A stretch of DNA of 64,000 nt, taken from assembly GCA_030613245.1 (NCBI GenBank), contig JAUWMI010000019.1, positions 6,728 to 70,727 on the forward strand. Reading direction: 5' to 3'. Shown one piece after another: positions 20,329-47,218 of the stretch (positions are counted from its first letter, which is position 1; every line of letters starts with the position of its first letter). Made by a program: the position numbers and the translations under genes. This DNA is from Candidatus Sumerlaeota bacterium (lineage in GTDB: Bacteria > Sumerlaeota > Sumerlaeia > MWCT01 > JAUWMI01). Below the pieces are notes generated by a model. That model had not been told where the DNA came from and did no database searches. It saw only the letters and a program-made list of their open reading frames with translations.

Positions 20329-20628
20329 ATGCCAGTTACTAAAATAACTCGCCGACACCAAGTGACAATTCCTAAGGACATCTTCGATCAGCTAGCCTTA
20401 GAGGAAGGGGACTTTTTAGACGTCCGAAGTCATAATAACGCTATAGTGATGGTCCCCAAGAAATTGATTCCCAAAGACCAGGAGTGGTTCTGGACTCGTG
20501 AACACCAAGCAAGAGAACGGGAAGCCAACGCTGATCTGGCTGCTGGTCGCGTCCATGGGCCTTATGAAACAGCGGAGCAGGCAGTCGGCGCTCTCCGGGA
20601 TAAACGCAAGCGTGTGCGCAAGGCCTAA
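20329..20628 (+). CDS. AbrB/MazE/SpoVT-family antitoxin
   Basis: ITRRHQVTIPKDIFDQLALEEGDFLDV is a swapped-hairpin AbrB-type motif. Lies directly upstream of the toxin gene. Confidence 0.75.
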   Translation: MPVTKITRRHQVTIPKDIFDQLALEEGDFLDVRSHNNAIVMVPKKLIPKDQEWFWTREHQAREREANADLAAGRVHGPYETAEQAVGALRDKRKRVRKA

Positions 20629-20633
20629 CTTGT

Positions 20634-20891
20634 ATGCGAATCATCTACACCGAATCGTTCTGCCGGGATTATGACAAGCTGCCTCCGGGTCTCCAATCTC
20701 AAATTCAGAAGAAAATTCGTCTTCTGGCCCAAAACCCCCGTCATCCCTCATTACGAACCAAGAAACTAGAGGGCACCGCTGATATTTTTGAAGGACATTT
20801 TACCGCTGGCTACTGTTTTACTTTTCAGCGGAAAGCCCAGACTCTTTATCTGAGGCGTATAGGTCGTCACGATATTTATAAAAAGCCTTAA
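20634..20891 (+). CDS. RelE/ParE-family toxin
   Basis: 85 aa. F..DYDKLP..Q..I.KKI..L..NP.HPSL..KKL.G....F..........YLRRIG.HD.Y follows the RelE/ParE pattern. Confidence 0.7.
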   Translation: MRIIYTESFCRDYDKLPPGLQSQIQKKIRLLAQNPRHPSLRTKKLEGTADIFEGHFTAGYCFTFQRKAQTLYLRRIGRHDIYKKP

Positions 20892-27372: not shown

Positions 27373-27564
27373 ATGCCGATAAAGATTACGATTGACGAAG
27401 AGGCGTGTATCGCGTGTGGAGCCTGTGAAGCCATCTGCCCCGATATCTTCTACATGGACGGCGATAAAGCGAAGGTGAAAAACGACGCCAATTTTAAGGA
27501 CCTAAAGGCAGAAATTGAAGATGCTCGAACCGGTTGCCCGGTTGAGTGTATAGCCGTGGAATAA
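27373..27564 (+). CDS. small [4Fe-4S]/[3Fe-4S] ferredoxin (63 aa)
   Basis: MPIKITIDEEACIACGACEAICPDIF..GCPVECIAVE. Start set at the internal ATG of ORF 27169..27564. Confidence 0.8.
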   Translation: MPIKITIDEEACIACGACEAICPDIFYMDGDKAKVKNDANFKDLKAEIEDARTGCPVECIAVE

Positions 27565-27607
27565 ATCCCCCCACGGTTTCTTAGAGCACCTAACAAAAAT
27601 AACTGTC

Positions 27608-27646
27608 AAACCACGACGGCACGACGCGAATGCGCCTCAGGCGCAT
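27608..27646. repeat. repeat family B copy
   Basis: aaaccacgacggcacgacgcgaatgcgcctcaggcgcat. Confidence 0.8.
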
Positions 27647-27669
27647 AAGCCGAATTAAAGATTCAAAAT

Positions 27670-27717
27670 GTAGGGGCGGGGTTAGCCCGCCCTGGGGCGA
27701 GGAGACCTCGCCCCTAC
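27670..27717. repeat. REP-type element, family A, double inner hairpin
   Basis: gtaggggcggggttagcccgccctggggcgaggagacctcgcccctac. Confidence 0.8.
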
Positions 27718-28575
27718 AAGGCATGTACGTTGTGTCGTAGTGGTTAATGCGCCTTAGGTGCACTTAGGCGAATAAAAACTTCATTTTGATAGTGTTTCTT
27801 AGTTTTTAATCATCACAACAGTTACTCGCCCAGAGAATCCGGCAAGAGCAGGACGCTCCTAGCGTGGCCTACGTGCAGTTGTATTGTTCGTAAGATCCCC
27901 CCGATCCCCGTCGTGATGGTTTATGTCCACTATCGGTGCTGCGTGCCGGTCGTCGCACGGCTTCGCCGGCATAGAAGCCATAATTGATATTAATGGTGCA
28001 GCCAACATCGCATAGGTCTGGTTCTTAATCAGAAAAGAGAGAATACAGAGAATTGGGTAATTTGAGGTTCTCTATTCGAAAGGAGCCGCTTTGCACAATC
28101 CCTTTCTTGTGGGCTTGTGTAAAAATTTTATACACAAACACTCCCAGATACCATAGACTATTGCTGGGTAAGAGATAAGCCTCTTTTATTGAAAGTTGGA
28201 GATTGAGAAAAGCTCTTGACAACATGCCGAAGGGGAGTAATAAAAAGTGTATATAAGAAGGAAAGAAAAGCCGCTGCTGGTTTTGTGCGCGCTATTTTGT
28301 GATAATTTTCTCAAGTTGCTGTGCCCAGGAATAATACGGATTTAACAATGTAAGCCATTTTGGCCGGAAAGATACAGGGAGCCAAGTCGTTTAGGTTTCC
28401 TAAATTTAAGGAATGATTTTGTGAAAATTAGAACATGGCCGAGCAGCGTTATCAATTCTAATCTCTTGGGTTTTCCTGGCTTATCTCGTTCTTTTACATG
28501 AATTACTGCTCTAAGATGCGCTCAATGCGCGTGAATTTGCCTTATTTCAAATTCTGTTAGAAGGAGAGTATCGGT

Positions 28576-29406
28576 ATGGCACCGCGAATTGGAGTCTATA
28601 TTTGCCATTGTGGGTCGAATATCGCTGGCAAAGTGCGCACTGACGATGTTGTGGAGTACATGAAATCCCTGCCACAGGTTGTCATTGCAAAAGATTATAA
28701 GTTTATGTGCTCGGATCCCGGACAGGAACTCATTCAAAAAGATATTAAAGAACACAGGCTTGAGCGTGTGGTGGTGGCATCGTGCTCGCCGCTAATGCAC
28801 GAGCCAACGTTTCGTCGCGCCTGCGAGGACGCGGGGTTGAACCGCTATTTGCTTCAGATGACCAACATCCGGGAGCAGTGCTCCTGGGTAACCGAGGACG
28901 CTAATGCAGCCACGAATAAGGCCATGGCTTTGATCCGTGGAGCTGTGCATCGTGCAATGTACCAGGAGCCGCTGGAAACCAAGGAAGTTGACATTCATCC
29001 CGACACGCTTGTTGTCGGCGCTGGCATTGCCGGAATTCAGGCAGCGCTTGACCTGGCAGACGCGGGCAAGAAGGTCTATCTGGTCGAGAAAGAGCCAAGC
29101 ATCGGTGGCCATATGTCGCAATTCGATAAGACCTTTCCAACGCTCGATTGCGCAGCATGCATTCTGACCCCGAAAATGGTGTCAGTAGGAAAGCATCCAA
29201 ATATAGAGTTGATGACCTACAGTGAAGTGAAAGAAATTTCGGGGTATATAGGTAATTTTAAGGTAAAGATAACGCAGAAGGCGCGGTATGTTGATGTGGA
29301 TAAGTGCAACGGGTGTGGCCTGTGCTGGGAGAATTGCCCTTCGTTCACTCTTCCAAGGCGAAGAAGGATACGGATAGGGGATAAGGTGATAAAAGAGGTG
29401 AAGTAG
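28576..29406 (+). CDS. hdrA: HdrA-like flavoprotein, N-terminal ~255-residue fragment followed by 21 unrelated residues
   Basis: RIGVYICHCGSNIAG, CSPLMHEPTFR, NIREQCSWV, VVGAGIAGIQAALDLA, PSIGGHMSQFDKTFPTLDCAACILTPKM, CNGCGLCWENCP, then SFTLPRRRRIRIGDKVIKEVK-TAG. Strong SD AAGGAGAG. Confidence 0.75.
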   Translation: MAPRIGVYICHCGSNIAGKVRTDDVVEYMKSLPQVVIAKDYKFMCSDPGQELIQKDIKEHRLERVVVASCSPLMHEPTFRRACEDAGLNRYLLQMTNIREQCSWVTEDANAATNKAMALIRGAVHRAMYQEPLETKEVDIHPDTLVVGAGIAGIQAALDLADAGKKVYLVEKEPSIGGHMSQFDKTFPTLDCAACILTPKMVSVGKHPNIELMTYSEVKEISGYIGNFKVKITQKARYVDVDKCNGCGLCWENCPSFTLPRRRRIRIGDKVIKEVK

Positions 29407-29492
29407 AACGGTTAGTTCGGTTAAGCCGTTAGTCGGTTAAAAGGGGGAGATACCTTCCTTGCGGAGGGTAGTTGAGAAGCAGGGTTGAAGCA

Positions 29493-29843
29493 ATGAGACT
29501 GCGAGAGATATGCGATACATTGAAATGTGAGGTTATGGGGGGCGAAGATCAGCTTGATATGGAGATAGACGTTGGCTGTGGGGCTGATTTGATGAGCGAT
29601 GTTCTCGCGTTTATCAAGCCGAATGCGCTGATGCTTACAGGATTGGTAAATGCGCAAGTAGTGCGAACGGCGGATATAGCGGATGTAAAGGCGATAGTAT
29701 TTGTACGAGGGAAGAAACCGGATAAGGATACGATAGCGTTGGCAAAGGAGAAGGGTATACCGCTGCTCTCTACGAAGCTCTTAATGTATGAATCTTGCGG
29801 ACGGTTATACGCAGGAGGGCTTCGAGGGGGAAGTGAAGTTTAA
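29493..29843 (+). CDS. DRTGG domain-like protein
   Basis: ~116 aa. DLMSDVLAFIKPNALMLTGLVNAQVVRTA..AIVFVRGKKP..AKEKGIPLLST resembles DRTGG proteins found in hydrogenase-regulator clusters. Confidence 0.6.
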   Translation: MRLREICDTLKCEVMGGEDQLDMEIDVGCGADLMSDVLAFIKPNALMLTGLVNAQVVRTADIADVKAIVFVRGKKPDKDTIALAKEKGIPLLSTKLLMYESCGRLYAGGLRGGSEV

Positions 29844-29891
29844 CGTGTTGACAATGCGCCTTGTGCGTGAGGGTGGCGGATACAGGAAAAA

Positions 29892-30332
29892 GTGGAGACC
29901 TTGTTTTCGCAGCAATTCTTAGTTGAGGGTGGGGATTTCAGGAATGCAGGTAATGCTTCGACACAGATAAAGACCATACTCAAGCAGATAGGGATACCAG
30001 GAGAGGTAATAAGGAGAGTGGCGATAGCGGCGTATGAAGCAGAGATGAACATGGTGATGTATGCGAAGCGAGGGGTGATGACGCTGCGTATAGAGCCGAT
30101 GAAAGTTGAGATATCTGTGGAGGATGAGGGACCCGGGATAGAAGACATAGAGTTAGCGATGCAGGAGGGGTATTCGACGGCATCGCCGGAGATACGAGAG
30201 ATGGGATTTGGAGCGGGGATGGGTTTGCCGAACATAAAGAAGAATTCAGATGAGTTTTCAATTGCTTCCACGGTTGGAAAAGGAACGCAGTTGAGTATAC
30301 GGATAAGGAATAGGGTGGTGCAAAGCGAATGA
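29892..30332 (+). CDS. GHKL ATPase, anti-sigma-factor-type Ser/Thr protein kinase-like (RsbW/SpoIIAB-like)
   Basis: AAYEAEMNMV (N-box-like), EDEGPGIEDIELAMQEGYST, GFGAGMGLPNIKK. GTG start. Its stop overlaps the next start in ATGA. Confidence 0.7.
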   Translation: METLFSQQFLVEGGDFRNAGNASTQIKTILKQIGIPGEVIRRVAIAAYEAEMNMVMYAKRGVMTLRIEPMKVEISVEDEGPGIEDIELAMQEGYSTASPEIREMGFGAGMGLPNIKKNSDEFSIASTVGKGTQLSIRIRNRVVQSE

Positions 30333-31654
30333 AGACCTATTCTAGTTCAGTTTATGTGAACGTGGAGAAATGTAACGGGCGAATGATGTGTATGAGGATA
30401 TGCCCAACGGAAGCAATTCGGGTTCGTAATGGCAAAGCCGAATTGATAGTGGAGCAATGCATAGACTGCGGTGAGTGTATCAAGGTATGTCCAAATCGAG
30501 CGATAATACCAGCGACAGATTCTTTTTCCGACCTGTCGCATTTCAAGCATACGGTGGCAATACCGTCACCGGTACTCTATGGACAGTTTGGCCGAGACGT
30601 TACGCCGGAGATGATACAGGGTGCGTTACTGAAGCTGGGGTTTAATGAGGTTGCGGACATAACGGGAGCGTGCGAGGCCGTATCGCTGGCAATACGAGAG
30701 CATCTGGAGAATTATACACTTCGTAAGCCGCTGATATCGTCGTTTTGCCCGACGATAGTGCGCTTGATACAGGTGAAGTATCCGGATCTGGCGGAGCTGG
30801 TGGTGCCGTTTGAGTCGCCCAAGGAGATCGTGGCGAGGGAGGTAAAAGCGCAGAGGTCAAAGGAATTGGGTTTTAAGGAAGACGAGATAGGGGCGATATA
30901 TCTGACGCCGTGTCCTTCAAAGATGATAGACATAAAGCTTCATCCGCGTAAGGAGAAGTCTTTTATTGATGGAGCGATTTCAATAGCGGAGATATACAGC
31001 AGTGTAGTGGCACTTATGGCAGAGATGAGGAACGTGACACCGCCGGAGGTATCGATGAATAACGTCTCCGGAATAGGACTAGAGTGGACGATGCTCGGGG
31101 GACAAACGGCGTCGCTGCAGATGGAAAACAGTCTGGCAGTGGATGGACTGAAGAACGTGATCAGGGCTTTTGAGGATATAGAAAATGGTAGGCTACGGGA
31201 TATTGACTATATCGAGTGTCATTCGTGTCCGGAGGGGTGCATAGGAGGCTCGCTGACAGTTGAGAATCCATATGTATCGAGGAGTAATTTAATCGGGTTG
31301 ATGAAGCGATACGGAGATGAACCGAAGCGGAGCCGGGAGGAGATACAGGGGCTGTACAACAAGAAGTTTTTTTTCACGGAGAGGCGTTTGCCAGTAACTC
31401 CGCGTCAGCGGCTGGATGAGAATATCACGAAAGCAATAGAGAAGATGAGGAAGAAGGACGCGATATATCGAAATTTGCCGCAGATAAATTGTGGATGTTG
31501 TGGTGCCCCGAACTGTGGAGCTTTTGCCGAGGATGTGGTGCAAGGTGTGGCACAGATAACGGATTGCATATTTATTTATCAGGAGCGCCTGAAAGCAACG
31601 GGCCAGGAGATGCTGCGCTTGCTCAATAAGAAGCCAGGCTACATCAAAGATTAA
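30329..31654 (+). CDS. [FeFe]-hydrogenase-like protein, putative sensory (HydS/group C-like), with C-terminal Cys cluster
   Basis: N-terminal ferredoxin motifs (CIDCGECIKVCP). H-domain motif variants SSFCP, TPCPSK, ECHSCPEGCIGGS. C-terminal CGCCGAPNCGAF. Confidence 0.75.
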   Translation: MKTYSSSVYVNVEKCNGRMMCMRICPTEAIRVRNGKAELIVEQCIDCGECIKVCPNRAIIPATDSFSDLSHFKHTVAIPSPVLYGQFGRDVTPEMIQGALLKLGFNEVADITGACEAVSLAIREHLENYTLRKPLISSFCPTIVRLIQVKYPDLAELVVPFESPKEIVAREVKAQRSKELGFKEDEIGAIYLTPCPSKMIDIKLHPRKEKSFIDGAISIAEIYSSVVALMAEMRNVTPPEVSMNNVSGIGLEWTMLGGQTASLQMENSLAVDGLKNVIRAFEDIENGRLRDIDYIECHSCPEGCIGGSLTVENPYVSRSNLIGLMKRYGDEPKRSREEIQGLYNKKFFFTERRLPVTPRQRLDENITKAIEKMRKKDAIYRNLPQINCGCCGAPNCGAFAEDVVQGVAQITDCIFIYQERLKATGQEMLRLLNKKPGYIKD

Positions 31655-31688
31655 TGCGCCTACCCTGGCGCATAAAGGATGAAGGGCG

Positions 31689-32027
31689 ATGAAATTAGAC
31701 CAGATCGTTCGCCAATTGGGAGTGAGGGTTCGCACCACAGAGGATAAGGTGAAGGAGGTAGAGGTTAAGGGCGGATATGCGAGTGATTTGTTGAGCGACG
31801 TCATAGGAAATGCGAAGGAAGGGTATTTGTGGGTGACGTTGCAGACGCATGCGAATATATTGGCGGTAGCGAAGTTGAAGGATATCGCGGCGATCTTGTT
31901 GGTGAATAGCCGTAAGCCGGACGCCGATACGCTCGAAAAGGCAGAGAAGGAAGGGATTGTGTTGCTAGAGAGTGATCTTTCGACGTTCGAGCTGGTCGGA
32001 AGATTGTATGAAATGGGGATACGGTGA
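31689..32027 (+). CDS. DRTGG domain-like protein (second copy)
   Basis: 112 aa. ASDLLSDVIGNAKEGYLWVTLQTHANILAVA..AILLVNSRKP..AEKEGIVLLES is a paralogue of 29493..29843. Confidence 0.6.
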   Translation: MKLDQIVRQLGVRVRTTEDKVKEVEVKGGYASDLLSDVIGNAKEGYLWVTLQTHANILAVAKLKDIAAILLVNSRKPDADTLEKAEKEGIVLLESDLSTFELVGRLYEMGIR

Positions 32028-32100
32028 TCGCCGAGGCGATGAGGGGCATTCTTCAGAGTGCCCACGCTTTGGCGTTAAGCTGATTGAAAGATGAAGGGAG

Positions 32101-32823
32101 ATGGCGAAAGGAATTGCCGCAGATTTGCATATACATACGTGTCTGTCGCCATGCGGCGAGTTGGAGATGTCGCCCAAAGGAATCGTTGAGGAGGCTTTGC
32201 GAAAGGGAATTGATATAATCGCCGTCTGCGATCACAACAGTGCGGAAAATGCACCCGCGGTGATCGAGGCTGCAAGGGGCAGCGGACTGCTGGTGCTGCC
32301 AGGTATAGAGATTACAACACGGGAAGAAGTTCATATAGCCGGGCTCTTTGATAGATGCGCCGATGCTCTGAAGGTTCAGGAGTTTGTGTATCAGCATTTG
32401 TATGGAGAAAATGACGAAGAGGCGTTCGGCGTGCAGCCGGTGGTGAACGCAGAGGGTGAAGTTTTGGAACTTAACCAGCGGCTACTGATCGGCTCAGCCG
32501 ATATTTCGGTCGAGGAGACGGTGGAGCAGATTCACAGGGCAGGGGGTTTGGCGATAGCGGCACACATAGACCGGGAGGCTTTTGGGATAATAGGGCAGCT
32601 GGGATTTATTCCGGATGACCTGGAGCTGGATGCGCTGGAGATTTCGAGCCGGACGACGGTAGAGGAAGCGAGGAGGAAATTCCAGGGGTGTGAAAGGTAT
32701 TTCATTTTCAGGTCTTCGGATGCGCATCGTTTGAAAGAGATAGGGCAGGCGGTAACGGAGATGGAGCTCGGTGAGGTCTCTTTCAAAGCGATTCGAGAGA
32801 TGTTAAGGACGATTCACCCATAA
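32101..32823 (+). CDS. PHP-domain phosphoesterase
   Basis: ADLHIHTCLSPCG..IIAVCDHNS..AAHIDRE..SSDAHRL are the His/Asp metal-ligand blocks of the PHP superfamily. Confidence 0.8.
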   Translation: MAKGIAADLHIHTCLSPCGELEMSPKGIVEEALRKGIDIIAVCDHNSAENAPAVIEAARGSGLLVLPGIEITTREEVHIAGLFDRCADALKVQEFVYQHLYGENDEEAFGVQPVVNAEGEVLELNQRLLIGSADISVEETVEQIHRAGGLAIAAHIDREAFGIIGQLGFIPDDLELDALEISSRTTVEEARRKFQGCERYFIFRSSDAHRLKEIGQAVTEMELGEVSFKAIREMLRTIHP

Positions 32824-32871
32824 AATTGGTGACTGATTTTGAGCAATTTTGGAAACGCTCGCCTACGGTAA

Positions 32872-33396
32872 TTGACTGTGCAGGATTTATCGCTTCACAT
32901 ATTGGATATAGTAGAGAATTCAATAACGGCTGGAGCGAAGAATGTTGAGATAAGGCTGATAGAGGATACAGAGGTGGATGTTCTGATTCTGGAGATAGAC
33001 GATGATGGCGTGGGGATGGATGAGGAGATGGTGCGCAAGGCGGCAGACCCGTTTGTGACGAGTCGAACTGAGAGAGACGTGGGTCTCGGTTTGGCGCTTC
33101 TTGCGCAGGCCGCAGAGATGGCGAACGGGAAGATAACCATAGAATCGAAGCGGGGCAAGGGGACACACGTAAAGGCGACGTTTCAATACAGTCATATAGA
33201 CAGAAAACCGTTGGGGAATGTAGGGGATACGCTGATAACTTTGATATGCGGGAATGCAGAGATAGATTTCACATTCTATCACAAGTGGCCGCTACGGGAA
33301 GTAAGGATCTCGACAAAGGAGATGAAGGAACGCCTTGGACGGGCGAACCTTGACTATATAGACACTGCTCGAGAGGTGCGAAGAAGACTCCAATAG
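32872..33396 (+). CDS. histidine-kinase-like (GHKL) ATPase, second copy
   Basis: LDIVENSITAGA (N box), IDDDGVGMD (G1), DVGLGLALL (G2). TTG start as given by the ORF track. Confidence 0.7.
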   Translation: MTVQDLSLHILDIVENSITAGAKNVEIRLIEDTEVDVLILEIDDDGVGMDEEMVRKAADPFVTSRTERDVGLGLALLAQAAEMANGKITIESKRGKGTHVKATFQYSHIDRKPLGNVGDTLITLICGNAEIDFTFYHKWPLREVRISTKEMKERLGRANLDYIDTAREVRRRLQ

Positions 33397-33435
33397 GTAA
33401 GCCAGACGGCTCGCGTCTGGGACAGGAGGCAGGAG

Positions 33436-33903
33436 ATGAAGGATAGCGTGCTGGAGCTCGAAAAGGTCCAGGAAATTATTCAGCGGTGGAACGGGAAGCA
33501 AGAGTTTCTTATTGAAATGCTTCAGGACGTTCAGGCGGAATATCGTTATTTGCCCAGGGAGGTGCTTGAGGAGATTGCCCGAACCATAGAGGTTCCACTT
33601 GGTAGGGTATATCATTTGGCGACGTTTTTTAAGGGGTTCAGTCTAACCCCGAGAGGAGAGTATGAAGTAAGCGTTTGTATGGGTACGGCATGCCATGTAA
33701 AAGGGGGGAAGCGGATACTGGATGCATTTTCGCGGCAGTTGAAGATCGAGGAGGGTGGGACTACAGGGGATCAGAAATTCAGTCTGGACTCGGTTCGATG
33801 TCTTGGATGTTGCGGTCTGGCACCAGTCGTGACGATAAATGAAGATCTTTACGGGAATATAAATTCGACAAGGGTAGCTGCGATATTGAAAAAATATAAA
33901 TAA
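33436..33903 (+). CDS. NuoE/HndA/HydC-like [2Fe-2S] subunit
   Basis: VCMGTACHVKGG..VRCLGCCGLAPVVTIN holds the four Cys of the NuoE-type cluster. Confidence 0.9.
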   Translation: MKDSVLELEKVQEIIQRWNGKQEFLIEMLQDVQAEYRYLPREVLEEIARTIEVPLGRVYHLATFFKGFSLTPRGEYEVSVCMGTACHVKGGKRILDAFSRQLKIEEGGTTGDQKFSLDSVRCLGCCGLAPVVTINEDLYGNINSTRVAAILKKYK

Positions 33904-33943
33904 GCCGGACGGCTCCGGTCTGGCAGAAGGTGGTGCATAGAAG

Positions 33944-34327
33944 ATGAAAAAGCTCACGATTACAGACCTTGAGAAGCTGCGCCAAAAGATTCAGGAAGAC
34001 CATACTGTGCGAGAGGGAAAGGCACTTGCTACGATAAACCTGCATATGGGAACTTGCGGGATTGCTGCTGGGATGAGGAAGGTCATGACGGCCTTGTTGC
34101 AGGAGATTGAAGCAAAGGACATTAAGAATGTGCGCGTGAGCACGTCTGGGTGCGCGGGTTTATGTAGCCGAGAGCCCATGGCAACGGTTCTGATTGCAGG
34201 GCAACCACCGGTAAAATATGCTGACCTTACGGATGAAAAGATTCGGAGAATACTGAATGAGCATGTGCTTGGTGGCAACCTTGTTAAGGAATATGTGCTC
34301 GCAGTAGGAAGCGAGCGCGTGGGATAG
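33944..34327 (+). CDS. HndB-like thioredoxin-fold [2Fe-2S] ferredoxin
   Basis: NLHMGTCGIAAG..STSGCAGLCSREPMATV. Confidence 0.8.
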   Translation: MKKLTITDLEKLRQKIQEDHTVREGKALATINLHMGTCGIAAGMRKVMTALLQEIEAKDIKNVRVSTSGCAGLCSREPMATVLIAGQPPVKYADLTDEKIRRILNEHVLGGNLVKEYVLAVGSERVG

Positions 34328-34411
34328 CAAGGGACGGGGAGGAAAAGTAAAAGGAAATGGCGGTATTGAAAGACCAGAAATTAGCATGTTTATACCCAGG
34401 AGGTTGAAGAA

Positions 34412-36226
34412 ATGCCATACCGACTGCATATGTTGCTATGCGCGGGTACGGGCTGTGTGAGTAATCGCTCGTTGGAGGTAAAAGAGGCTTTGGAGAAGGA
34501 GATTCAGCAACGCGGTCTTGAGAGCGAGATTCAGGTGATTGCGACAGGTTGCAATGGGTTTTGCGGTGTAGGACCAATAGTACTTGTGCAACCAGACGGA
34601 ATTTTTTACCAGCAGGTAAAGGTAAGGGATATTCCTGCACTGGTAGAGGAGCACCTGGTAAAGGGGAGACCGTATAAGAAGCTGATGTTTACGCCGAGCA
34701 AAGAGGCCGAGCCAATACCGAAGATGAATGATATACCTTTCTTCGGTAAGCAGATGTTGATAGCATTAAGGAACCGTGGGCTTATTGATCCAGAGAACAT
34801 TGAGGAGTATATTGCTCGAGATGGATACAAGGCCCTGGCGAAAGTCCTCTCTTCTATGACACCGGAACAGGTGATCGAAGAGGTAAAGGTATCAGGCCTG
34901 CGCGGGCGAGGTGGTGGTGGATTCCCAACAGGATTAAAGTGGGAAGTGTGCCGCAATGCGATCGGGGATGAGAAATACTTAATTTGCAATTGCGATGAGG
35001 GCGACCCGGGAGCATTTATGGATCGAAGCATTGTTGAGAGCGATCCGCATTCTGTCATTGAGGGAATGGCGATAGGCGCATACGCAGTTGGGATACTGCA
35101 AGCATATATTTACGTTCGAATGGAATATCCGTTAGCATTGAAGCGTTTTATTCTGGCGCTTGACCAGGCGCGGGAATACGGGCTTATCGGAGAGAATATT
35201 CTGGGGACTAGCTTCAGTTTTGACATAGAGGTTCATCGTGGTGCGGGTGCGTTTGTCTGCGGGGAGGAGACGGCTCTGATAGCTTCAATAGAGGGTAAGC
35301 CAGGCGAGCCGCGAGCGAAGTATGTCTACCCTGCGCAACAGGGTCTGCGAGATATGCCTACGTTGATAAACAATGTCGAGACATGGGCCAACATACCCGT
35401 AATAATTCAACGTGGTGCGAAATGGTTCTCCAGTATAGGCACGCGTGATGTCAGCGAATCGGAACAGGGGGGAAGCACTGGCACGAAGGTCTTCTCGCTT
35501 GTCGGGAAGGTAAACAATACTGGGCTGGTTGAGGTCCCGATGGGGATAAAGTTGCGTGAGATAATTTACGATATAGGCGGGGGAATAGCTGGAGGAAAAC
35601 GATTCAAAGCAGTTCAGACAGGCGGCCCTTCAGGCGGTTGCCTTCCAGAGGAGTTACTGGATTTGCCAGTAGATTTTGATCGTTTGCTGAGTGTGGGCTC
35701 GATGATGGGTTCTGGCGGGATGATAGTGATGGATGAAGAAGATTGTATGGTAGACGTTGCGCGATACTTTATAGATTTTCTGAACGGTGAATCGTGCGGG
35801 AAGTGCACGCCTTGTCGAGAAGGTCTGCGGCAGATGAGAGAGATTCTGAACCGAATTTGCGACGGAAAAGGTGAGGATGCGGATATACAGAAGTTAGAAG
35901 ATTTGTCAGAGCTGATGGTGGAAGGGTCGCTGTGTGCGCTGGGCGGTACTGCACCGAATCCGGTGTTAAACACGCTGCGATATTTCAAGGATGAATACGT
36001 TGCGCATATAAAGGATAGGCGGTGCCCGGCGGGCACTTGTCAAGCGCTCATAACCTACCGGATTGACGCTGAAAAATGCACGGGCTGCGCGCTTTGTGCG
36101 AAGCATTGTCCGGTAAATTGTATAAGCGGTGAGCCGAAAAAGCTGCATACGATTGAAATATCAGCGTGCATCAAGTGCGGCACTTGCTATGATGCGTGCA
36201 GGTTTGATGCAGTAATACGGAAATGA
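34412..36226 (+). CDS. NuoF/HndC/HydB-like NAD(H)-binding FMN subunit with extra Fe-S domains
   Basis: N-terminal CAGTGC..GCNGFC thioredoxin-like 2Fe-2S. GRGGGGFPTGLKW FMN site. ESCGKCTPCREG N3 cluster. C-terminal 2x CxxCxxCxxxC. Confidence 0.9.
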   Translation: MPYRLHMLLCAGTGCVSNRSLEVKEALEKEIQQRGLESEIQVIATGCNGFCGVGPIVLVQPDGIFYQQVKVRDIPALVEEHLVKGRPYKKLMFTPSKEAEPIPKMNDIPFFGKQMLIALRNRGLIDPENIEEYIARDGYKALAKVLSSMTPEQVIEEVKVSGLRGRGGGGFPTGLKWEVCRNAIGDEKYLICNCDEGDPGAFMDRSIVESDPHSVIEGMAIGAYAVGILQAYIYVRMEYPLALKRFILALDQAREYGLIGENILGTSFSFDIEVHRGAGAFVCGEETALIASIEGKPGEPRAKYVYPAQQGLRDMPTLINNVETWANIPVIIQRGAKWFSSIGTRDVSESEQGGSTGTKVFSLVGKVNNTGLVEVPMGIKLREIIYDIGGGIAGGKRFKAVQTGGPSGGCLPEELLDLPVDFDRLLSVGSMMGSGGMIVMDEEDCMVDVARYFIDFLNGESCGKCTPCREGLRQMREILNRICDGKGEDADIQKLEDLSELMVEGSLCALGGTAPNPVLNTLRYFKDEYVAHIKDRRCPAGTCQALITYRIDAEKCTGCALCAKHCPVNCISGEPKKLHTIEISACIKCGTCYDACRFDAVIRK

Positions 36227-36321
36227 TGTTACCTGGCGTTTCGCCGGCTGTCTGGCATGGCGAAGCGCGTCTCAGATAACAACGGTACAGCAGGGGATAG
36301 TAAACTAAAAAGGAGTAGACC

Positions 36322-38079
36322 ATGGCAACAGTAACTATTGATGACCAGAAGCTGGAGATAGAAGACGAGAAGACGATACTTGATGTGGCGAAAAAGCTGG
36401 GGATAAGAATTCCAACGCTCTGCCATAACGAGATGATTGAGCCGTATGCAGCGTGCAGAATATGTTCGGTTGAGATAGTGAGAGGGAAGCGGCGCAGAAT
36501 AGTAACGGCGTGTAATTATCCAGTTTCGGACGGGCTGGTGGTTTATTCGAATAATGAGCGGGTGCGGAAGATACGCAAGATAATACTGGAGTTGTTGCTG
36601 GCGCGATGTAGTGCGGAGGTGCCGATCCTAAAGGAATTGGCTGAGGAATATGGGCTTGAGGAATGGCGGTTCGGTCGCGGGAAAGAAGAATGCATACTGT
36701 GCGGTCTGTGCGTAAGGGTATGCGATGAGATAGTCGGTGTGCAAGCGATAGCGTTTGCGAATAGAGGAGCGGATAGGGAGGTGACCACGCCATTTGGAAC
36801 AGAGTCGGAGGCGTGTATCGCGTGTGGGGCGTGTGCGTTTGTGTGTCCGACAGGTGCAATAAAACTAGAGGAACTAGAGGGCCTCCAGATAGTTCACCAG
36901 GATTTGTGCTTAGGTCCGGCAAGGGCGATAGCGGTTCCGTTCTTGCAAGCCGTGCCGAATGTTCCAGTGATTGATAAAGATGCCTGTATTCATTTCCGAA
37001 CCGGTGAGTGCCACATCTGTGAAAAAGTTTGTGAGCCAGAGGCGATTAACTTTGAAATGGAGGAGAAGGAGATCGAGGTTGAGGTCGGAGCAGCCATTCT
37101 CGCCACCGGTTTTGAACCGTTCGATCCTAGTGTAATAACGCAATATGGATATGGCAGAATGAAGAACGTCATAACCTCGCTGGAATTTGAACGAATGAAT
37201 TGTGCAGCCGGCCCCACAGCTGGCAAGATTTTAATGGTTGATGGTAAGGAGCCAAAGAGTGTGGGGATTATCCATTGCGTAGGGAGTCGCGATAAGGAGT
37301 ATCACGAGTACTGCTCTGCTGTGTGTTGTATGTATGCGCTGAAATACGGCCACCTGCTGAAGGAAAAGATTAATGCTGAAGTGTATAACTTCTATATAGA
37401 TTTGCGCTGCTATAAAAAGGGCTATGAGGAGTTTTATCACCGATTGCTGGAAGAAGACATCCGCTTTGTGCGTGGTAAGGTAGCAGAGGTCTCCGACTTT
37501 GCCATTTATGAGAAAGAAAGAGGCAAACTGATCATCCGTTGTGAAGACACTCTGATCGGTATTATCCGCAGAATCCCCGTGGATATGATAGTTCTCTGTA
37601 CCGCAATCCAGGCACGATCTGATGCTCTGGAGACCGCCCGCACATTTACGATCGGACAAGGTAAGGACGGCTTCTTTATTGAAAAGCATCCAAAGCTTGC
37701 ACCGGTGGCAACGATGAACGACGCCATTTATATTGCCGGTGTATGCCAGGGGCCAAAGGATATTCCAGAGTCTGTAGCACAGGGGTCTGCGGCGGCGTCT
37801 GCTGCGCTCTCTGCTCTGGTTAAAGGGAAAGCGGAAATCGAATCAATTGTTGCAGTGATTGACGAGGATAAATGCGCAGGATGCCGCATTTGCAACGGGT
37901 TGTGCCCCTCAACGGCAATTAGCTTTGATGAGGAGAAAAAGATCTCAGTAGTCAACGAGGCGTTGTGTAAGGGGTGCGGAACATGCGGGGCAGGCTGTCC
38001 AAGTGGTGCTATTACCAGTCGCCACTTCACTGACCGCCAGATAGTTGCGGAAATTGAGGGGATTATGCAGGGGCCCTGA
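36322..38079 (+). CDS. chimeric Fe-S flavoprotein: N-terminal 2Fe-2S plus 4Fe-4S module (~200 aa) fused to the C-terminal ~385 aa of HdrA
   Basis: TLCHNEMIEPYAACRICSVEI..ACNYPV (2Fe-2S), CILCGLCVRVC, CIACGACAFVCP. Then HdrA blocks ARAIAVPFLQAVP, CIHFRTGECHICEKVCEP, ATGFEPFD, YGYGRMKNVITSLEFER, CVGSRD..YCSAVCCMYALK. C-terminal CAGCRICNGLCP and CKGCGTCGAGCP. Confidence 0.8.
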   Translation: MATVTIDDQKLEIEDEKTILDVAKKLGIRIPTLCHNEMIEPYAACRICSVEIVRGKRRRIVTACNYPVSDGLVVYSNNERVRKIRKIILELLLARCSAEVPILKELAEEYGLEEWRFGRGKEECILCGLCVRVCDEIVGVQAIAFANRGADREVTTPFGTESEACIACGACAFVCPTGAIKLEELEGLQIVHQDLCLGPARAIAVPFLQAVPNVPVIDKDACIHFRTGECHICEKVCEPEAINFEMEEKEIEVEVGAAILATGFEPFDPSVITQYGYGRMKNVITSLEFERMNCAAGPTAGKILMVDGKEPKSVGIIHCVGSRDKEYHEYCSAVCCMYALKYGHLLKEKINAEVYNFYIDLRCYKKGYEEFYHRLLEEDIRFVRGKVAEVSDFAIYEKERGKLIIRCEDTLIGIIRRIPVDMIVLCTAIQARSDALETARTFTIGQGKDGFFIEKHPKLAPVATMNDAIYIAGVCQGPKDIPESVAQGSAAASAALSALVKGKAEIESIVAVIDEDKCAGCRICNGLCPSTAISFDEEKKISVVNEALCKGCGTCGAGCPSGAITSRHFTDRQIVAEIEGIMQGP

Positions 38080-38529: not shown

Positions 38530-38976
38530 ATGAAAATTTCGGCAAGATGTGACTATGCATGTCGCGCAGTGCTTGAACTGACACTCGCTTACCCGAGCGG
38601 GGAATTGCTCAGGATTTCTGACATTGCGGCGAGTCAGAATATTCCTCCCAAATATCTTGTTCAGATATTGATCCAGCTCAAGCGAGCAGGACTGTTAGCA
38701 AGTACGCGGGGGAAAAGCGGCGGATATCGCCTGGCAAAGCGTCCGGACCAGATCTGTGTGGGTGATGTTGCAAGGGCAATAGACGGACCGCTAATGCTGA
38801 TTGGGTGCATTGACCCTGGGGCCAAAAAGGCGTGTCCACAGTTTGAGAGCTGTGCTTTCAGGCAGATGTGGAAAGAACTTGAGAAGAAGATAACCGGGTT
38901 ACTGGATAGTGTGACCTTTGAAGATATCGGCAATAGATTGAAGGATTCGGTGGAAATAGCGATGTACGAAATATAA
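38530..38976 (+). CDS. Rrf2-family transcriptional regulator (IscR/CymR-like) with three clustered Cys
   Basis: MKISARCDYACRAVLELT..ISDIAASQNIPPKYLVQILIQLKRAGLLASTRGKSGGYRLA. Cys ligand candidates in GCIDPGAKKACPQFESC. Confidence 0.9.
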   Translation: MKISARCDYACRAVLELTLAYPSGELLRISDIAASQNIPPKYLVQILIQLKRAGLLASTRGKSGGYRLAKRPDQICVGDVARAIDGPLMLIGCIDPGAKKACPQFESCAFRQMWKELEKKITGLLDSVTFEDIGNRLKDSVEIAMYEI

Positions 38977-39032
38977 TTTTTTGAGACAAATGTTTACCAA
39001 GTTAATCATATTAGTTTTAATGGGAGGCGTAT

Positions 39033-39785
39033 ATGGCTCAAGAACAGAACACTCAGAAACTAGAAAGGGAGATCCAGCCGCTCCAGGACAGTGACGCGGA
39101 ACAGGTGGTGCGCTGGGCGCTCGAGCGTTTTGATGATCAGGTTGCTCTGGCCTCTAGCTTTGGCGTTGAGGATATGGTTCTGACTGATATGATGCTGCGT
39201 ATATCTCCACGTGCCCGCATCTTTACCCTCGATACTGGGCGGCTTCCGAAGGAGACGTATGACCTGATGGAGCGGGTGCGCGAGCGCTATGGAGTGAGAA
39301 TTGAGGTCTTTGCTCCCCAGAGTTCTCAGCTCGAGAAGATGATTTCAGAGAGCGGGCCGAATGCGTTTTATCGTTCGATTGAGTTGCGCAGGCTATGCTG
39401 CAACGTGCGTAAGGTGGAGCCACTTGGCCGCGCATTACAGAGTCTGTCGGCGTGGATTTGTGGCCTGAGACGCGCACAGGCTGTAACACGCCAGGAGCTA
39501 AAAAAGCTGGAAATTGATGAGGCGCACGGCGGAATGCTGAAGATTAACCCCCTTCTTGAGTGGAGTGACAAGGAGGCCTGGAACTACGTCATGGAGCGCG
39601 ATGTTCCGTACAATGTGCTTCACGATCGGAGCTACCCAAGTATTGGGTGCGCACCATGCACGCGAGCAGTGCAGCCAGGGGAAGACATCCGGGCGGGCCG
39701 CTGGTGGTGGGAGACTCCAGAACAAAAGGAATGTGGCCTTCATCGGACGGGTTCTTCAAAGACTGATACTACAGGAGGGCAATAA
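39033..39785 (+). CDS. cysH: adenylylsulfate/phosphoadenylylsulfate reductase, Fe-S type (assimilatory)
   Basis: PP-loop-like ALASSFGVEDMVL, RLCCNVRKVEPL plus IGCAPCT (CC..CxxC cluster ligands), C-terminal KECGLH. Confidence 0.9.
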   Translation: MAQEQNTQKLEREIQPLQDSDAEQVVRWALERFDDQVALASSFGVEDMVLTDMMLRISPRARIFTLDTGRLPKETYDLMERVRERYGVRIEVFAPQSSQLEKMISESGPNAFYRSIELRRLCCNVRKVEPLGRALQSLSAWICGLRRAQAVTRQELKKLEIDEAHGGMLKINPLLEWSDKEAWNYVMERDVPYNVLHDRSYPSIGCAPCTRAVQPGEDIRAGRWWWETPEQKECGLHRTGSSKTDTTGGQ

Positions 39786-41008: not shown

Positions 41009-41121
41009 TTGATCTTCAGATATCACTGGTTGGGTTTGTGATTGGCATCCTTGTCGGGCTGACAGGTGTTGGTGGGGGTGTGCTCATGACTCCCCTGCTA
41101 ATAGCTTCAGACTTTTCATAA
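41005..41121 (+). pseudogene. 38-codon remnant of a TauE/SafE-type sulfite/anion exporter gene
   Basis: ATG overlaps the sat stop (ATGA). MIDLQISLVGFVIGILVGLTGVGGGVLMTPLLIASDFS-stop. LTGVGGGxLMxP is the first-TM signature of the ~250-aa TauE/SafE family. Not in the ORF track (<60 aa). Confidence 0.55.
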
Positions 41122-41142
41122 ACAAAGGTGGAGGGGTTAGAG

Positions 41143-46759: not shown

Positions 46760-47218
<459 letters not shown>

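Follow-up and report, generated by a model that had tools for sequence, protein, structure and literature searches.

The locus considered here raises the question of why the sequence of HdrA is found in two separate open reading frames, and whether this arrangement is an accident of one genome or an established form of the operon. The first-pass annotation took it for the result of a recent, genome-specific illegitimate insertion. The window, that is, the whole stretch of DNA analysed, comprises 64,000 nucleotides from a Candidatus Sumerlaeota bacterium, and all genes discussed lie on its + strand. The upstream ORF, the HdrA-N subunit (28576..29406), encodes 276 aa and ends at TAG. Its residues 3-256 match HdrA 12-266 of PDB 8rvu_a (phmmer against the PDB, E 2.4e-104), and HdrA chain 5odc_A is matched as well. 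It contains the N-terminal Cys-cluster domain, the first half of the FAD (thioredoxin-reductase-like) fold with GAGIAG, and a DCAAC motif, and it ends with the first CxxCxxCxxxCP of the inserted ferredoxin domain (motif n, CNGCGLCWENCP, nt 29305-29340) and a family-specific C-terminal tail (SFTLPRRRRIRIGDKVIKEVK), the two together occupying 29305..29403.

The downstream ORF (36322-38079, 585 aa) is a fusion. Residues 4-182 match BfuA/NuoG-like N-terminal modules (PDB 9mqx_A, E 5e-37; also 7t2r_A and 8a6t_A), and residues 160-584 match HdrA 249-655 (E 9e-113). The BfuA-like module (36322..36918) has a [2Fe-2S] cluster at C34, C45, C48 and C64 and a 2x[4Fe-4S] ferredoxin domain with C124-C134 and C165-C175, the latter being motif b (nt 36814-36849). 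From the inserted ferredoxin domain, the HdrA-C part (36919..38079) contains the loop and the second Cys motif (C222, C230, C233, C237); it also contains the remainder of the FAD fold, the CCMY cluster and, at the C-terminus, a 2x[4Fe-4S] ferredoxin domain. The HdrA matches of the two ORFs overlap at the CxxCxxCxxxCP motif only, so that coverage of HdrA is contiguous; the two motif sequences are identical today at 19 of 36 nt. HdrA continues in no other frame or place of the 64 kb. The first-pass annotation had thus described the two ORFs correctly: an HdrA N-part, the rest of HdrA behind an unrelated Fe-S module, and break and rejoin both at a CxxCxxCxxxCP motif.

It had also called the last 21 residues of the N fragment unrelated, and here the family argues otherwise. 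In an alignment of 17 N-fragments of distant taxa, C244, C247, C250, W251, C254, P260 and R263 are invariant and P255 and I265 nearly so, and P260, R263 and I265 belong to the tail. The Fe-S Cys residues of the fusion are all invariant in the corresponding fusion alignment. The HdrA-N family has more than 115 clusters (275-302 aa, 66-97% identity) and the fusion family more than 120 (582-603 aa, coverage 99-100%); over both, identity is 57-97% and length is kept. Since the best 120 matches of the N fragment are all short forms (203-377 aa, nearly all 275-302 aa) and none is a full-length HdrA, the HdrA parts of the window sit among split-type sequences. Every gene of the operon has a dN/dS of 0.05-0.33 (against the related loci L006, L004 and L007), and with values of 0.05-0.19 for hdrA_N and 0.14-0.20 for the HdrA-C part, both hdrA pieces are under purifying selection. 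Invariant Fe-S ligands, a conserved tail and purifying selection on both genes are not the marks of a one-off chimera.

The arrangement is widespread. Among species-representative genomes, 56 loci with the fusion carry at least 15 phylum- or class-level labels, among them Acidobacteriota, Eubacteriales, Aminicenantes, Zixibacteria, Ignavibacteria, Planctomycetota, Calditrichota, Armatimonadota, Dehalococcoidia, Desulfobacterales, Myxococcales, Verrucomicrobiota and Sumerlaeota. In all 47 checkable loci hdrA_N lies upstream of the fusion, with nuoE (46 loci) and nuoF (45) between them and regulators in 25; hdrB/C are found upstream in 34 of 39 split loci and mvhD downstream in 40 of 50. The commonest order is hdrC-hdrB-hdrA_N-(regulators)-nuoE-nuoF-fusion-mvhDGA. 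The nearest unsplit relatives have hdrC-hdrB-hdrA-mvhDGA, as against hdrC-hdrB-hdrA_N-[nuoE-nuoF-nuoG']::hdrA_C-mvhDGA in split loci. A bfuCBA-type operon that was inserted long ago into hdrA at the position of the ferredoxin motif would have left this difference, and such an insertion is a sensible way to model how the family arose. The foreign insertion first proposed for this genome may therefore stand as a model of that ancient event, but not as an event in this genome.

Between the two hdrA pieces lies, in the window, a six-gene regulatory block. It consists of a DRTGG-domain protein (DRTGG1, 29472..29843; Pfam E 6e-9), found at the corresponding position in 25 of 47 split loci; a histidine-kinase-like, anti-sigma-factor-like ATPase (29892..30332; HATPase_c_2, E 7.7e-11), with a spIIAB-like NCBIfam match under the curated cut-off; a HydS-like [FeFe]-hydrogenase homologue and putative H2 sensor (30329..31654; Fe_hyd_lg_C E 8.6e-30, FeS E 9e-13); a second DRTGG-domain protein (31689..32027; E 1.3e-4), 37% identical to the first; a PHP-domain phosphoesterase (32101..32823; Pfam PHP, PHP_C); and another histidine-kinase-like ATPase (32872..33396; HATPase_c, E 8.7e-17). 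The last two are one fused protein in the Acidobacteriota locus L001. The HydS-like protein has 2x[4Fe-4S], Fe_hyd_lg_C and C-terminal FeS domains, with SSFCP, TPCPSK and ECHSCPEGCIGG in place of the L1-L3 motifs; its role is presumably sensory. HydS-type sensory [FeFe]-hydrogenase regulatory genes adjoin HydABC operons in Thermotogae and Firmicutes. The block resembles these in having an Fe_hyd_lg_C protein with altered H-cluster motifs beside PHP and kinase-like ATPase genes, directly upstream of bfuC. However, a C-terminal PF04060 FeS domain stands in place of PAS, no PAS domain being detected in 30329..31654, and the operon ends in the HdrA fusion, not in a hydrogenase catalytic subunit. 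The block as a whole probably serves H2 sensing and regulation.

Downstream of it are a NuoE-like [2Fe-2S] subunit (33436..33903; Pfam 2Fe-2S_thioredx, E 1.6e-49), a small thioredoxin-like [2Fe-2S] ferredoxin of 127 aa (33944..34327; weak Pfam and NCBIfam matches) that is kept at the same position in many split loci, and a NuoF-like flavoprotein (34412..36226). The best six PDB matches of the first are all C subunits of the Bfu family (7t2r_C, 8a6t_C, 9mqx_C, 7p5h_C, 9n5u_C, 7q4v_C). Residues 3-601 of the flavoprotein match 4-594 of bifurcating NiFe-HydB (7t2r_B, E 2.9e-249), FeFe-HydB (7q4v_B) is also matched, and its domains are an N-terminal [2Fe-2S], the FMN/NADH site, the NuoF [4Fe-4S] and a C-terminal 2x[4Fe-4S]. 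The B2-B5 cluster set is stated to occur in bifurcating enzymes alone (PMC8880783), and the BfuBC core defines the Bfu family (PMC9304861). Full-length best matches to structurally characterised bifurcating HydC and HydB thus identify the two genes as probable bfuC and bfuB. As the upstream neighbour of hdrA_N, a small single-cluster-type ferredoxin gene (27373..27564; Fer4_13, E 6.5e-14) encodes a possible redox partner; the order mutL-ferredoxin-hdrA_N is also found in L006 and L007. By Pfam domains there is no integrase or transposase within the cassette, as the first-pass annotation had stated, no repeats were found to flank it, and hdrB, hdrC and mvhD/G/A are absent from the 64-kb window.

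The interior of the operon, about 7.6 kb, differs clearly from the HdrA parts at silent sites. At four-fold sites, purines reach a fraction of 0.694 in the interior, against one of 0.532 in the HdrA-coding parts (Fisher p = 8e-7) and one of 0.462 in 31 genes elsewhere in the window (p = 2e-46), and ATA makes up 123 of 199 Ile codons in the interior versus 7 of 53 in the HdrA parts (p = 1e-10). Since the break is seen at four-fold sites and in ATA versus ATT/ATC, amino-acid content is not its cause. The GC skew is about 0.3 over 29-37.5 kb. The ATA/ATT/ATC counts are 14/3/2 in residues 1-200 of the fusion and 6/20/13 in residues 201-585, 6/0/1 in DRTGG1 and 25/20/4 in the NuoF-like gene; in hdrA_N, residues 1-210 have 14 Ile codons, of which 1 is ATA, and residues 211-276 have 6, of which 5 are ATA. 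The Ile codons counted by hand in the first-pass annotation are close to these figures. One patch within nuoF, at 35.24-35.68 kb, has background-like composition.

The 5' boundary of the distinct interior lies approximately at 29200..29350, within the 3' end of hdrA_N, where the sliding four-fold purine fraction climbs from about 0.5 to more than 0.7 (29.1-29.35 kb) and third-position identity to the related locus L005 from 28-50% to 55-60%. Composition and pairwise identity thus suggest an approximate crossover here; the triplet test for a formal breakpoint in hdrA_N is not significant (p ~0.3) because L007 shares the 5' junction. At the 3' end, composition switches at 36.87-37.0 kb, and maximum chi-square analysis of the triplet window/L005/L089 places a recombination crossover at 36915..36919, the junction of the BfuA and HdrA domains. 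To its left the window equals L005 at 118 of 157 informative sites, to its right at 59 of 304 (chi-square 136, reached by 0 of 1000 permutations). The N- and C-parts of the fusion are 84 and 72.5% identical to the window in L005, and 68 and 87% in P0003. The window and L005 agree at 49-62% of synonymous third positions over the stretch that runs from the regulators to the BfuA domain, but at 41.8% in the HdrA-C part, saturation being at about 35-42%. L005 is itself purine-rich throughout (hdrA_N 0.75, HdrA-C part 0.64, and one flanking gene too). The interior (about 29.2-36.9 kb) therefore appears to derive from an L005-type operon, while the HdrA parts look native; composition suggests that the interior was imported rather than the HdrA parts replaced. 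The foreign character first claimed for the interior holds for composition and ancestry, with a crossover near 36917, but the contrast with the flanks is most readily taken as the outcome of homologous exchange between operons in which hdrA had been split before.

Several other histories have been weighed against this reading. Illegitimate recombination between Fe-S motifs, putting a foreign operon into an intact hdrA of this genome or a very recent ancestor, would leave a truncated, pseudogene-like N-terminal ORF and a novel chimeric gene. The host-like HdrA parts around an unlike interior, the same motif at both junctions and the lack of mobile-element genes (Pfam) fit such an event, but the same split, fusion point and tail in at least 56 species-level genomes of many phyla, dN/dS of 0.05-0.2 for both HdrA pieces, nearest relatives of the N fragment that are short forms and motif sequences matching at 19/36 nt only leave it a very slim chance. 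That a 276-aa and a 585-aa family recur in this order in many unrelated phyla is the finding that the first-pass annotation had itself named as contrary to its proposal. A chimeric metagenomic contig joining an hdrA fragment to an unrelated operon has hardly any chance at all: the window apparently comes from a metagenome-assembled contig, but both junctions recur, contiguously, in the independent assemblies L006 (GCA_964454265.1), L004 (GCA_976011075.1) and L007/L089/L090 (Logan), which excludes an assembly chimera, and in dozens of distant genomes.

A gene-specific constraint (expression, amino acids, mRNA) in a vertically inherited operon would explain why the rank order of genes by raw third-position purine is similar in the window and L005. 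Yet the break holds at sites independent of amino-acid content, falls inside one gene, is absent from L005 and coincides with a switch in ancestry, and we regard such a constraint as quite improbable. More serious, though still unlikely, is a homologous knock-in, in which a double crossover in the HdrA flanks carried a split-type donor cassette into an intact hdrA; the split would then be secondary in this lineage, and the cassette would use this route for its horizontal spread. Native-looking flanks around a donor-like interior, a crossover within or beside conserved HdrA sequence and the absence here of hdrCB and mvhDGA, unlike an L005-type donor, agree with it. So does a neighbour-joining tree of the HdrA-C part, without support values, in which split and unsplit forms are interleaved, unsplit Krumholzibacteriota adjoining the window/L005 clade and split and unsplit Dehalococcoidia grouping together; by this tree the split may have had one origin or several. 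However, hdrA_N residues 1-210 and the HdrA-C part are 66-76% and 63-72% identical to split-type homologues, whereas the unsplit homologues recovered are less similar (58-63%).

An intact, widespread split-hdrA operon with a Bfu module, whose interior was later exchanged, is thus the probable reading, and we hold it with good confidence. The exchange would have occurred in the ancestor of the window and L007 lineages, by homologous recombination with an L005-type operon from a source genome uniformly purine- and ATA-rich at silent sites, and would have reached from about 70 codons before the end of hdrA_N to the end of the BfuA domain. The compositional island would then be a separate event, later than the hdrA split. 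The L007 lineage would have undergone a second, later swap, from nuoE through the BfuA domain. Both exchanges end where BfuA meets HdrA, which suggests that the halves from Bfu and Hdr behave as modules that can be exchanged separately.

The closest known systems each share part of this design. As in MvhADG-HdrABC of methanogens (5ODC, 8RVU), the two ORFs together hold every HdrA domain and Cys motif, and hdrC-hdrB and mvhD-mvhG-mvhA flank the operon canonically in most split-hdrA relatives. Unlike there, HdrA is cut inside the inserted ferredoxin domain, and hence through the FAD fold. At this point a BfuA-like Fe-S module is joined to it, bfuC and bfuB lie between the halves, and the window has no hdrBC or mvhADG. 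To our knowledge, the bacterial hosts of the split operon have no CoM-S-S-CoB. The Bfu family includes FeFe-HydABC, NiFe-HydABCSL (7T2R), NfnABC and WOR-Bfu (9MQX) (Schut et al. 2022, PMC9304861). Its BfuB domain set, BfuC, BfuA-like input module and typical bfuC-bfuB-bfuA order are found here, the best matches being structurally characterised members. The BfuA module here, however, has no catalytic domain of its own; its fusion partner is the C-terminal two-thirds of HdrA, and the "third substrate" branch would therefore end in a second bifurcating flavin. Unlike the family, it also appears to lack the His-ligated [4Fe-4S] cluster, since no HxxxCxxCxxxxxC is conserved in the fusion alignment. 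A BfuA-HdrA fusion was not found in the text or supplement of PMC9304861. Bam-Bfu (BamBCDEFGHI, class II benzoyl-CoA reductase) combines the HdrA-type BamE, an MvhD-like subunit and the BfuABC module BamGHI, with two bifurcation modules proposed in series (PMC9304861). It is a precedent for these three components in one complex, but BamE and BamI are separate subunits with no split or fusion reported (PMC9304861), and its tungsten AOR-type catalytic subunit, BamB, is absent here (Pfam, all ORFs). The tandem or fused, domain-complementary HdrA paralogues of ANME and the Moorella MetFV-HdrABC-MvhD complex (Chadwick et al. 2022, PMC9012536) also spread function over non-identical polypeptides that must pair. 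Whole units there keep or lose entire domains (N-terminal domain, Cys197, C-terminal ferredoxin), whereas here one HdrA unit is severed within the FAD fold and fused to a non-Hdr module.

The most likely function of the operon is a two-flavin Hdr-Bfu electron-bifurcating complex; no complex under such a name was found in the searchable literature, and an earlier description may exist. The analysis shows homology, conservation, gene order, purifying selection, the break in composition and the crossover at the 3' end; how the subunits assemble, how the motifs pair, which path the electrons take, what the substrates are and in which direction DNA was transferred are inferred. HdrA is encoded as two polypeptides, HdrA-N stopping just past the first of the two Cys motifs in the inserted ferredoxin domain and the remainder being joined in frame behind the BfuA/NuoG-like [2Fe-2S]/2x[4Fe-4S] module, with bfuC, the small [2Fe-2S] ferredoxin and bfuB encoded between them; about half of the family, the window included, adds the six-gene, probably regulatory block. 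In most relatives, where hdrCB and mvhDGA flank the operon, an H2/disulfide/NAD(H)/ferredoxin super-complex is probable. Since no hdrB/C or mvhD/G/A lie in the 64 kb, the complex here may differ or use partners encoded elsewhere. Because the split crosses the FAD fold, both HdrA pieces must join into one FAD domain. In the simplest pairing, motifs a and b of the fusion would form the BfuA ferredoxin domain, while motif n of HdrA-N and motif c of the fusion would rebuild the inserted ferredoxin domain of HdrA across the subunit interface. In canonical HdrA the inserted domain is the outlet of the low-potential branch, so that the fusion would hard-wire it, on the side of the HdrA flavin, to the chain of Fe-S clusters that leads to BfuBC, the core with FMN, NAD(H) and ferredoxin. 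The result would be a coupling in series of two different bifurcation centres.

The region 28576-38079 on the plus strand holds eleven tightly spaced ORFs, of which the first and the last each encode part of HdrA. Although soluble HdrA is one polypeptide of about 650 aa, its counterpart here is divided between two ORFs 6.9 kb apart. The first, hdrA_N (28576-29406, +), encodes 276 aa and ends at a TAG stop; in a PDB search its residues 3-256 correspond to residues 12-266 of methanogen HdrA (8rvu_a, E 2.4e-104; 5odc_A, E 4.4e-104). The last, the fusion gene (36322-38079, +), encodes a two-part protein of 585 aa. Its residues 4-182 match the N-terminal modules of BfuA/NuoG/HydA-type proteins (9mqx_A, E 5e-37; 7t2r_A; 8a6t_A), and its residues 160-584 cover HdrA 249-655 (E 9e-113). 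The two HdrA matches overlap in a single CxxCxxCxxxCP motif (nt 29305-29340 in hdrA_N, nt 36814-36849 in the fusion gene), and no further HdrA continuation is found anywhere else in the 64-kb window. The PDB alignments thus bear out the first-pass annotation, which had placed the start of HdrA in 28576-29406 and the remainder in 36322-38079, meeting at this motif. hdrA_N carries the N-terminal Cys-cluster domain of HdrA and a thioredoxin-reductase-like FAD fold with its GxGxxG; G148, G150, G153, the N-terminal Cys residues and C192/C195 are invariant among aligned N fragments. The inserted ferredoxin domain of HdrA has its first motif in hdrA_N (C244-C254) and its second in the fusion protein (C222-C237), which also holds the CCMY-type cluster (C331/C335/C336) and the C-terminal 2x[4Fe-4S] ferredoxin domain (C518-C559). 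The inserted-ferredoxin motifs and the Cys residues of the latter two sites are invariant throughout the alignments of both proteins. The split-and-fused architecture has no NCBIfam name, and the HdrA models there score far under their cut-offs, with 397 bits against 1100 on the N fragment.

Both proteins belong to conserved families. The fusion family comprises more than 120 database clusters (57-91% identity, 99-100% coverage) of 582-603 aa, with one of 624 aa, and the N-fragment family more than 115 (66-97% identity), 275-302 aa long. No Fe-S ligand varies across 16 distant fusion proteins. The 21-residue tail of hdrA_N had been regarded as unrelated sequence, but it is conserved in the family: in 17 aligned N fragments the Cys motif is kept, P260 and R263 of the tail are invariant, and I265 is nearly so. 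For all operon genes, dN/dS against three relatives is 0.05-0.33, and for both HdrA pieces it is 0.05-0.2. With such low ratios, invariant ligands, and a truncation point and tail common to many phyla, the pieces do not have the character of pseudogenes. Judged from these alignments, the split is no lesion; it is an old, functional and widespread architecture. The recent gene-breaking insertion in this genome that the first-pass annotation had proposed has to be given up, since the 276-aa and 585-aa proteins recur as conserved families, in the same gene order, in many unrelated genomes.

A species-level scan, with one genome per species, returned 80 loci, and the fusion is present in 56. Their record titles name Acidobacteriota, Eubacteriales, Aminicenantes, Zixibacteria, Ignavibacteria, Planctomycetota/Phycisphaerae, Calditrichota, Armatimonadota, Dehalococcoidia, Desulfobacterales, Myxococcales, Verrucomicrobiota, Sumerlaeota, Fischerbacteria, Bacteroidota and one MAG labelled archaeon; the best fusion match among the species representatives is a Sumerlaeota locus (L058, 69%). 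hdrA_N lies upstream on the same strand in all 47 loci with enough upstream sequence, and between it and the fusion gene are nuoE (46 of 47), nuoF (45 of 47) and the regulator block (25 of 47). Of 39 loci that could be checked, 34 have hdrC/hdrB directly upstream; downstream of the fusion gene, mvhD is found in 40 and mvhG/A in 37 of 50. In three Planctomycetota loci (L048, L051, L056) the DRTGG/HATPase/DRTGG/PHP/HATPase regulators are located between nuoF and the fusion gene, not before nuoE, and no HydS-like gene was detected in these three. In some Dehalococcoidia, NuoF is extended by an NfnB-like domain (the long NuoF in locus L002). The nearest unsplit relatives (L064, L066-L078) have the order hdrC-hdrB-hdrA-mvhD-mvhG-mvhA, so the split form looks like bfuC-bfuB-bfuA' put into hdrA and fused on the 3' side. 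The suggestion of an insertion between Fe-S motifs therefore fits the origin of the family, as a comparison of unsplit and split gene orders indicates, but not an event in this genome. In a neighbour-joining tree of the HdrA-C part, which carries no support values, the split and unsplit forms are interleaved.

Some loci combine several units. Several in Dehalococcoidia/Chloroflexi and Desulfobacterales/Myxococcales have two or three HdrA-type units: L042, L046, L049 and L079 have a split-type unit plus additional hdrA copies, L066, L069, L075 and L078 have two unsplit hdrA-mvhD units, and in L033 and L039 the split unit is followed by a second BfuA-nuoE-nuoF set. Recombination between the forms would find substrates in such loci. 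The MAG labelled 'archaeon' (L053, DATKXY010000041.1) has a complete bacterial-type hdrCB-hdrA_N-nuoE-fdx-nuoF-fusion-mvhDGA operon, explained either by transfer to archaea or by an error in binning or labelling.

The nine genes between the HdrA pieces, all on the plus strand, were identified by Pfam, NCBIfam and PDB searches. They encode a DRTGG protein (29472-29843), a kinase-like ATPase (29892-30332), a HydS-like Fe_hyd_lg_C protein (30329-31654), a second DRTGG protein (31689-32027), a PHP phosphoesterase (32101-32823), a second kinase-like ATPase (32872-33396), a NuoE-like protein (33436-33903), a small [2Fe-2S] ferredoxin (33944-34327) and a NuoF-like protein of 604 aa (34412-36226). The HydS-like protein (Fe_hyd_lg_C, E 8.6e-30) has the motifs SSFCP, TPCPSK and ECHSCPEGCIGG, and no PAS domain was detected in it. 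It is so named for what we take to be a likeness to the characterised sensory [FeFe]-hydrogenase HydS. Sensory HydS proteins keep the Cys ligands of the H-cluster, have an altered proton-transfer Cys and are associated with signalling domains. By analogy with such systems, the HydS-like/PHP/kinase-like block probably provides a putative H2-responsive regulation of the operon. The NuoF-like protein aligns end to end with HydB of the bifurcating NiFe hydrogenase (7t2r_B, E 2.9e-249). In Pfam and NCBIfam it has an N-terminal [2Fe-2S] domain, the FMN/NADH site, the NuoF [4Fe-4S] domain and a C-terminal 2x[4Fe-4S] domain. A NuoF-like protein with both the N-terminal [2Fe-2S] and the C-terminal 2x[4Fe-4S] clusters is described as unique to bifurcating members (Feng et al., PMC8880783), and by its predicted cluster set this one would be a BfuB. 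BfuC, the NuoE-like [2Fe-2S] protein, whose best PDB matches are all C subunits of the Bfu family, is encoded beside it, as in the Bfu core.

The cassette does not resemble a mobile element or a genomic island. Pfam gives no integrase, transposase or recombinase domain in the cassette region, in agreement with the first reading; no repeats bound 29.3-36.9 kb, where the repeat search gave short chance matches only, and Rfam has no match in the whole window. A promoter and terminator scan gave sites no commoner than in shuffled sequences.

The composition of the interior is distinctive. GC skew is about 0.3 across 29-37.5 kb, as against 0.0-0.2 around it. Since raw purine content depends on amino-acid content, four-fold third positions and the use of ATA against ATT/ATC were compared. 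In hdrA_N, the four-fold purine fraction is 0.539 in residues 1-210, with ATA in 1 of 14 Ile codons, and 0.708 in residues 211-276 (ATA 5/6). The nine cassette genes have 0.687 (ATA 104/174), residues 1-200 of the fusion protein 0.769 (14/19) and residues 201-585 0.527 (6/39); the background of 31 other window genes has 0.462 (162/933). The interior differs from the HdrA parts (p = 8e-7 at four-fold sites, p = 1e-10 for ATA) and from the background (p = 2e-46 and p = 1e-34), while the HdrA parts and the background do not differ in ATA use (p = 0.57). The compositional break noted earlier thus holds by both measures, and in a sliding profile the switches fall at about 29.1-29.35 kb and at 36.87-37.0 kb. 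Within the nuoF-like gene, four-fold purine dips to a background-like 0.50 at 35240-35680, with 0.62-0.73 on both flanks; this patch may be a small piece of different ancestry or a strongly constrained stretch.

L005, the nearest lineage outside the window group (76% identity), has a full hdrCB...mvhDGA operon and is uniformly rich in purine and ATA (0.75 in hdrA_N, 0.64 in the HdrA-C part, 0.60 in a flanking gene). As L005 has no break, the one seen in the window is no inherent property of these genes. Compared with L005, the fusion gene of the window has 84% identity over its BfuA part and 72.5% over its HdrA part. Against P0003, the fusion gene of the close L007 lineage, the values are 68% and 87%. 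The maximum chi-square breakpoint falls at nt 36915-36919, with none of 1000 permutations reaching its value; the window shares the L005 state at 118 of 157 informative sites to the left and 59 of 304 to the right. At synonymous third positions, where saturation lies at about 35-42% identity, the window and L005 share 49-62% from the regulators through the BfuA domain and 41.8% in the HdrA-C part. The L007 lineage shares 49-58% with L005 in the regulators; from nuoE to the BfuA domain its identity to L005 and to the window alike is at saturation (34-42%).

Ancestry therefore switches at the same places as composition, which is clean evidence of modular homologous exchange, and two such exchanges are the simplest reading of the mosaic. 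In one, the interior of the operon in the common ancestor would have come from an L005-type donor; in the other, the L007 lineage would have exchanged the stretch from nuoE to the BfuA domain once more, acquiring a tandem long NuoF as well. The junction of BfuA and HdrA would be the end of both. The 5' boundary is placed at about 29.2-29.35 kb by composition and pairwise identity only; a triplet test is uninformative there because L007 has the same junction. Less probable is that the cassette was knocked into an hdrA still intact at the time, since split-type homologues resemble the native HdrA parts more closely than unsplit ones do. Gene conversion by a full-length hdrA paralogue was also considered for the HdrA parts and dropped, as no full-length HdrA occurs among the best 120 matches of the N fragment, the genome being in view here as far as the window extends.

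The order mutL-ferredoxin-hdrA_N...fusion is common to the window, L006 (GCA_964454265.1; 95% identity in hdrA_N), L004 (GCA_976011075.1; 91% in the fusion) and the Logan assemblies L007 with L089/L090 (about 89%). This shared synteny excludes an assembly chimera. By tblastn with L005 proteins, HdrB (CCG domains), HdrC, MvhD and the small and large [NiFe]-hydrogenase subunits are absent from the 64-kb window, and no hdrBC or mvhADG genes are seen near the operon in L006, L004 or L007/L089/L090. Their absence nearby is derived relative to most of the family. By tblastn, L007 ends in a second nuoF, and the fusion gene of this lineage is P0003, on L089/L090. At 14971-20831, L007 has nuoE', fdx' and a NuoF of 1022 aa that carries a fused NfnB/GltD-like domain, with the second, ordinary nuoF behind it; the second module swap is the apparent source of this tandem NuoF.

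The surroundings of the operon vary. A sulfate-assimilation block, rrf2-cysH-sat-sir (38530-42135), stands directly 3' of the fusion gene in the window and is also present in L004, with an extra TauE gene between sat and sir, and in L089/L090. L006 has no such block, and its fusion gene is followed by a 95-aa ORF and a T2SS-pseudopilin-like gene. On the 5' side of hdrA_N is a 1-kb non-coding stretch (27565-28575) with no Rfam match, containing a GC-rich hairpin (about 27671-27718) flanked by the imperfect direct repeat aatgcgcctcaggcgcataagccgaat / aatgcgccttaggtgcacttaggcgaat. Two adjacent minus-strand ORFs at 45929-47266 have a G+C of 0.42 and 0.38, compared with 0.47-0.56 in their neighbours, and the membrane pyrophosphatase (47509-49548) has its nearest named relatives in KSB1 and Calditrichota, at about 70% identity.

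The inserted ferredoxin domain, within which the cut falls, interrupts the FAD fold, so HdrA-N and the fusion protein must assemble to give one FAD site. Two of the Cys motifs in the fusion protein belong by homology to the BfuA ferredoxin domain (9mqx_A, 7t2r_A), which leaves the motif in hdrA_N and the third motif in the fusion for the inserted domain of HdrA; these two would rebuild that domain across the subunit interface. In methanogen HdrA, the low-potential branch has its outlet to ferredoxin in the inserted ferredoxin domain (PMC9012536), and the BfuBC core binds NAD(H) and ferredoxin (PMC9304861). BfuA, fused at the HdrA outlet, may therefore connect the low-potential branch with BfuBC. 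Where HdrBC and MvhADG are also encoded, as they are in most relatives, H2, disulfide, NAD(H) and ferredoxin could be coupled through two bifurcation centres; in the window lineage, the conserved upstream ferredoxin is a candidate partner. In the known MvhADG-HdrABC system, HdrB, HdrC, MvhD and the [NiFe]-hydrogenase subunits are encoded with HdrA, as in most relatives but not in the 64 kb of the window. Bam-Bfu, the class II benzoyl-CoA reductase, is a precedent for the combination of HdrA-type and Bfu modules (PMC9304861). However, it has a tungsten AOR-type BamB and an HdrD-like BamD, and no ORF with an AOR or CCG domain occurs at 27-42 kb. A bolder proposal, to which we give rather little weight, is that the operon represents an undescribed class of two-flavin bifurcating super-complex, with the HdrA FAD outlet hard-wired through a cross-subunit ferredoxin domain and the fused BfuA Fe-S chain to the FMN/Fe-S centre of BfuBC, and that its Bfu half is a recombination-exchangeable cassette, possibly inserted into or excised from hdrA by crossovers in the HdrA flanks. 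If true, an exchangeable Bfu cassette would account for its uneven distribution among at least 15 phyla.

Of the four known families of electron-bifurcating enzymes, two are the HdrA type and the Bfu type; the gating of their low-potential branches is an open question in anaerobic bioenergetics. The components described here are known, but their split-and-fused wiring of two bifurcating modules is widespread and apparently undescribed. The literature searched, including the Bfu family survey, neither describes nor names a split HdrA joined to BfuA/NuoG, which is absence of evidence only; a supplement to Schut et al. 2022 contains no Hdr entries. For genome scanning, the locus is a warning that a split gene with a foreign-looking interior may prove to be a long-standing, functional architecture on which homologous exchange of modules was superimposed later. 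The family covalently links the input module of one bifurcating family to the bifurcating flavoprotein of the other, with HdrA cut through its FAD fold at the ferredoxin outlet. Since the family occurs commonly among uncultured Acidobacteriota, Aminicenantes, Ignavibacteria, Planctomycetota, Dehalococcoidia and others, it makes available a natural construct in which serial bifurcation can be studied, for example with H2 or NADH plus ferredoxin coupled to a disulfide. It would also change the reading of "group 3c hydrogenase/Hdr" genes in metagenomes, because the pieces are now annotated as "FAD-dependent oxidoreductase" or "4Fe-4S dicluster protein".
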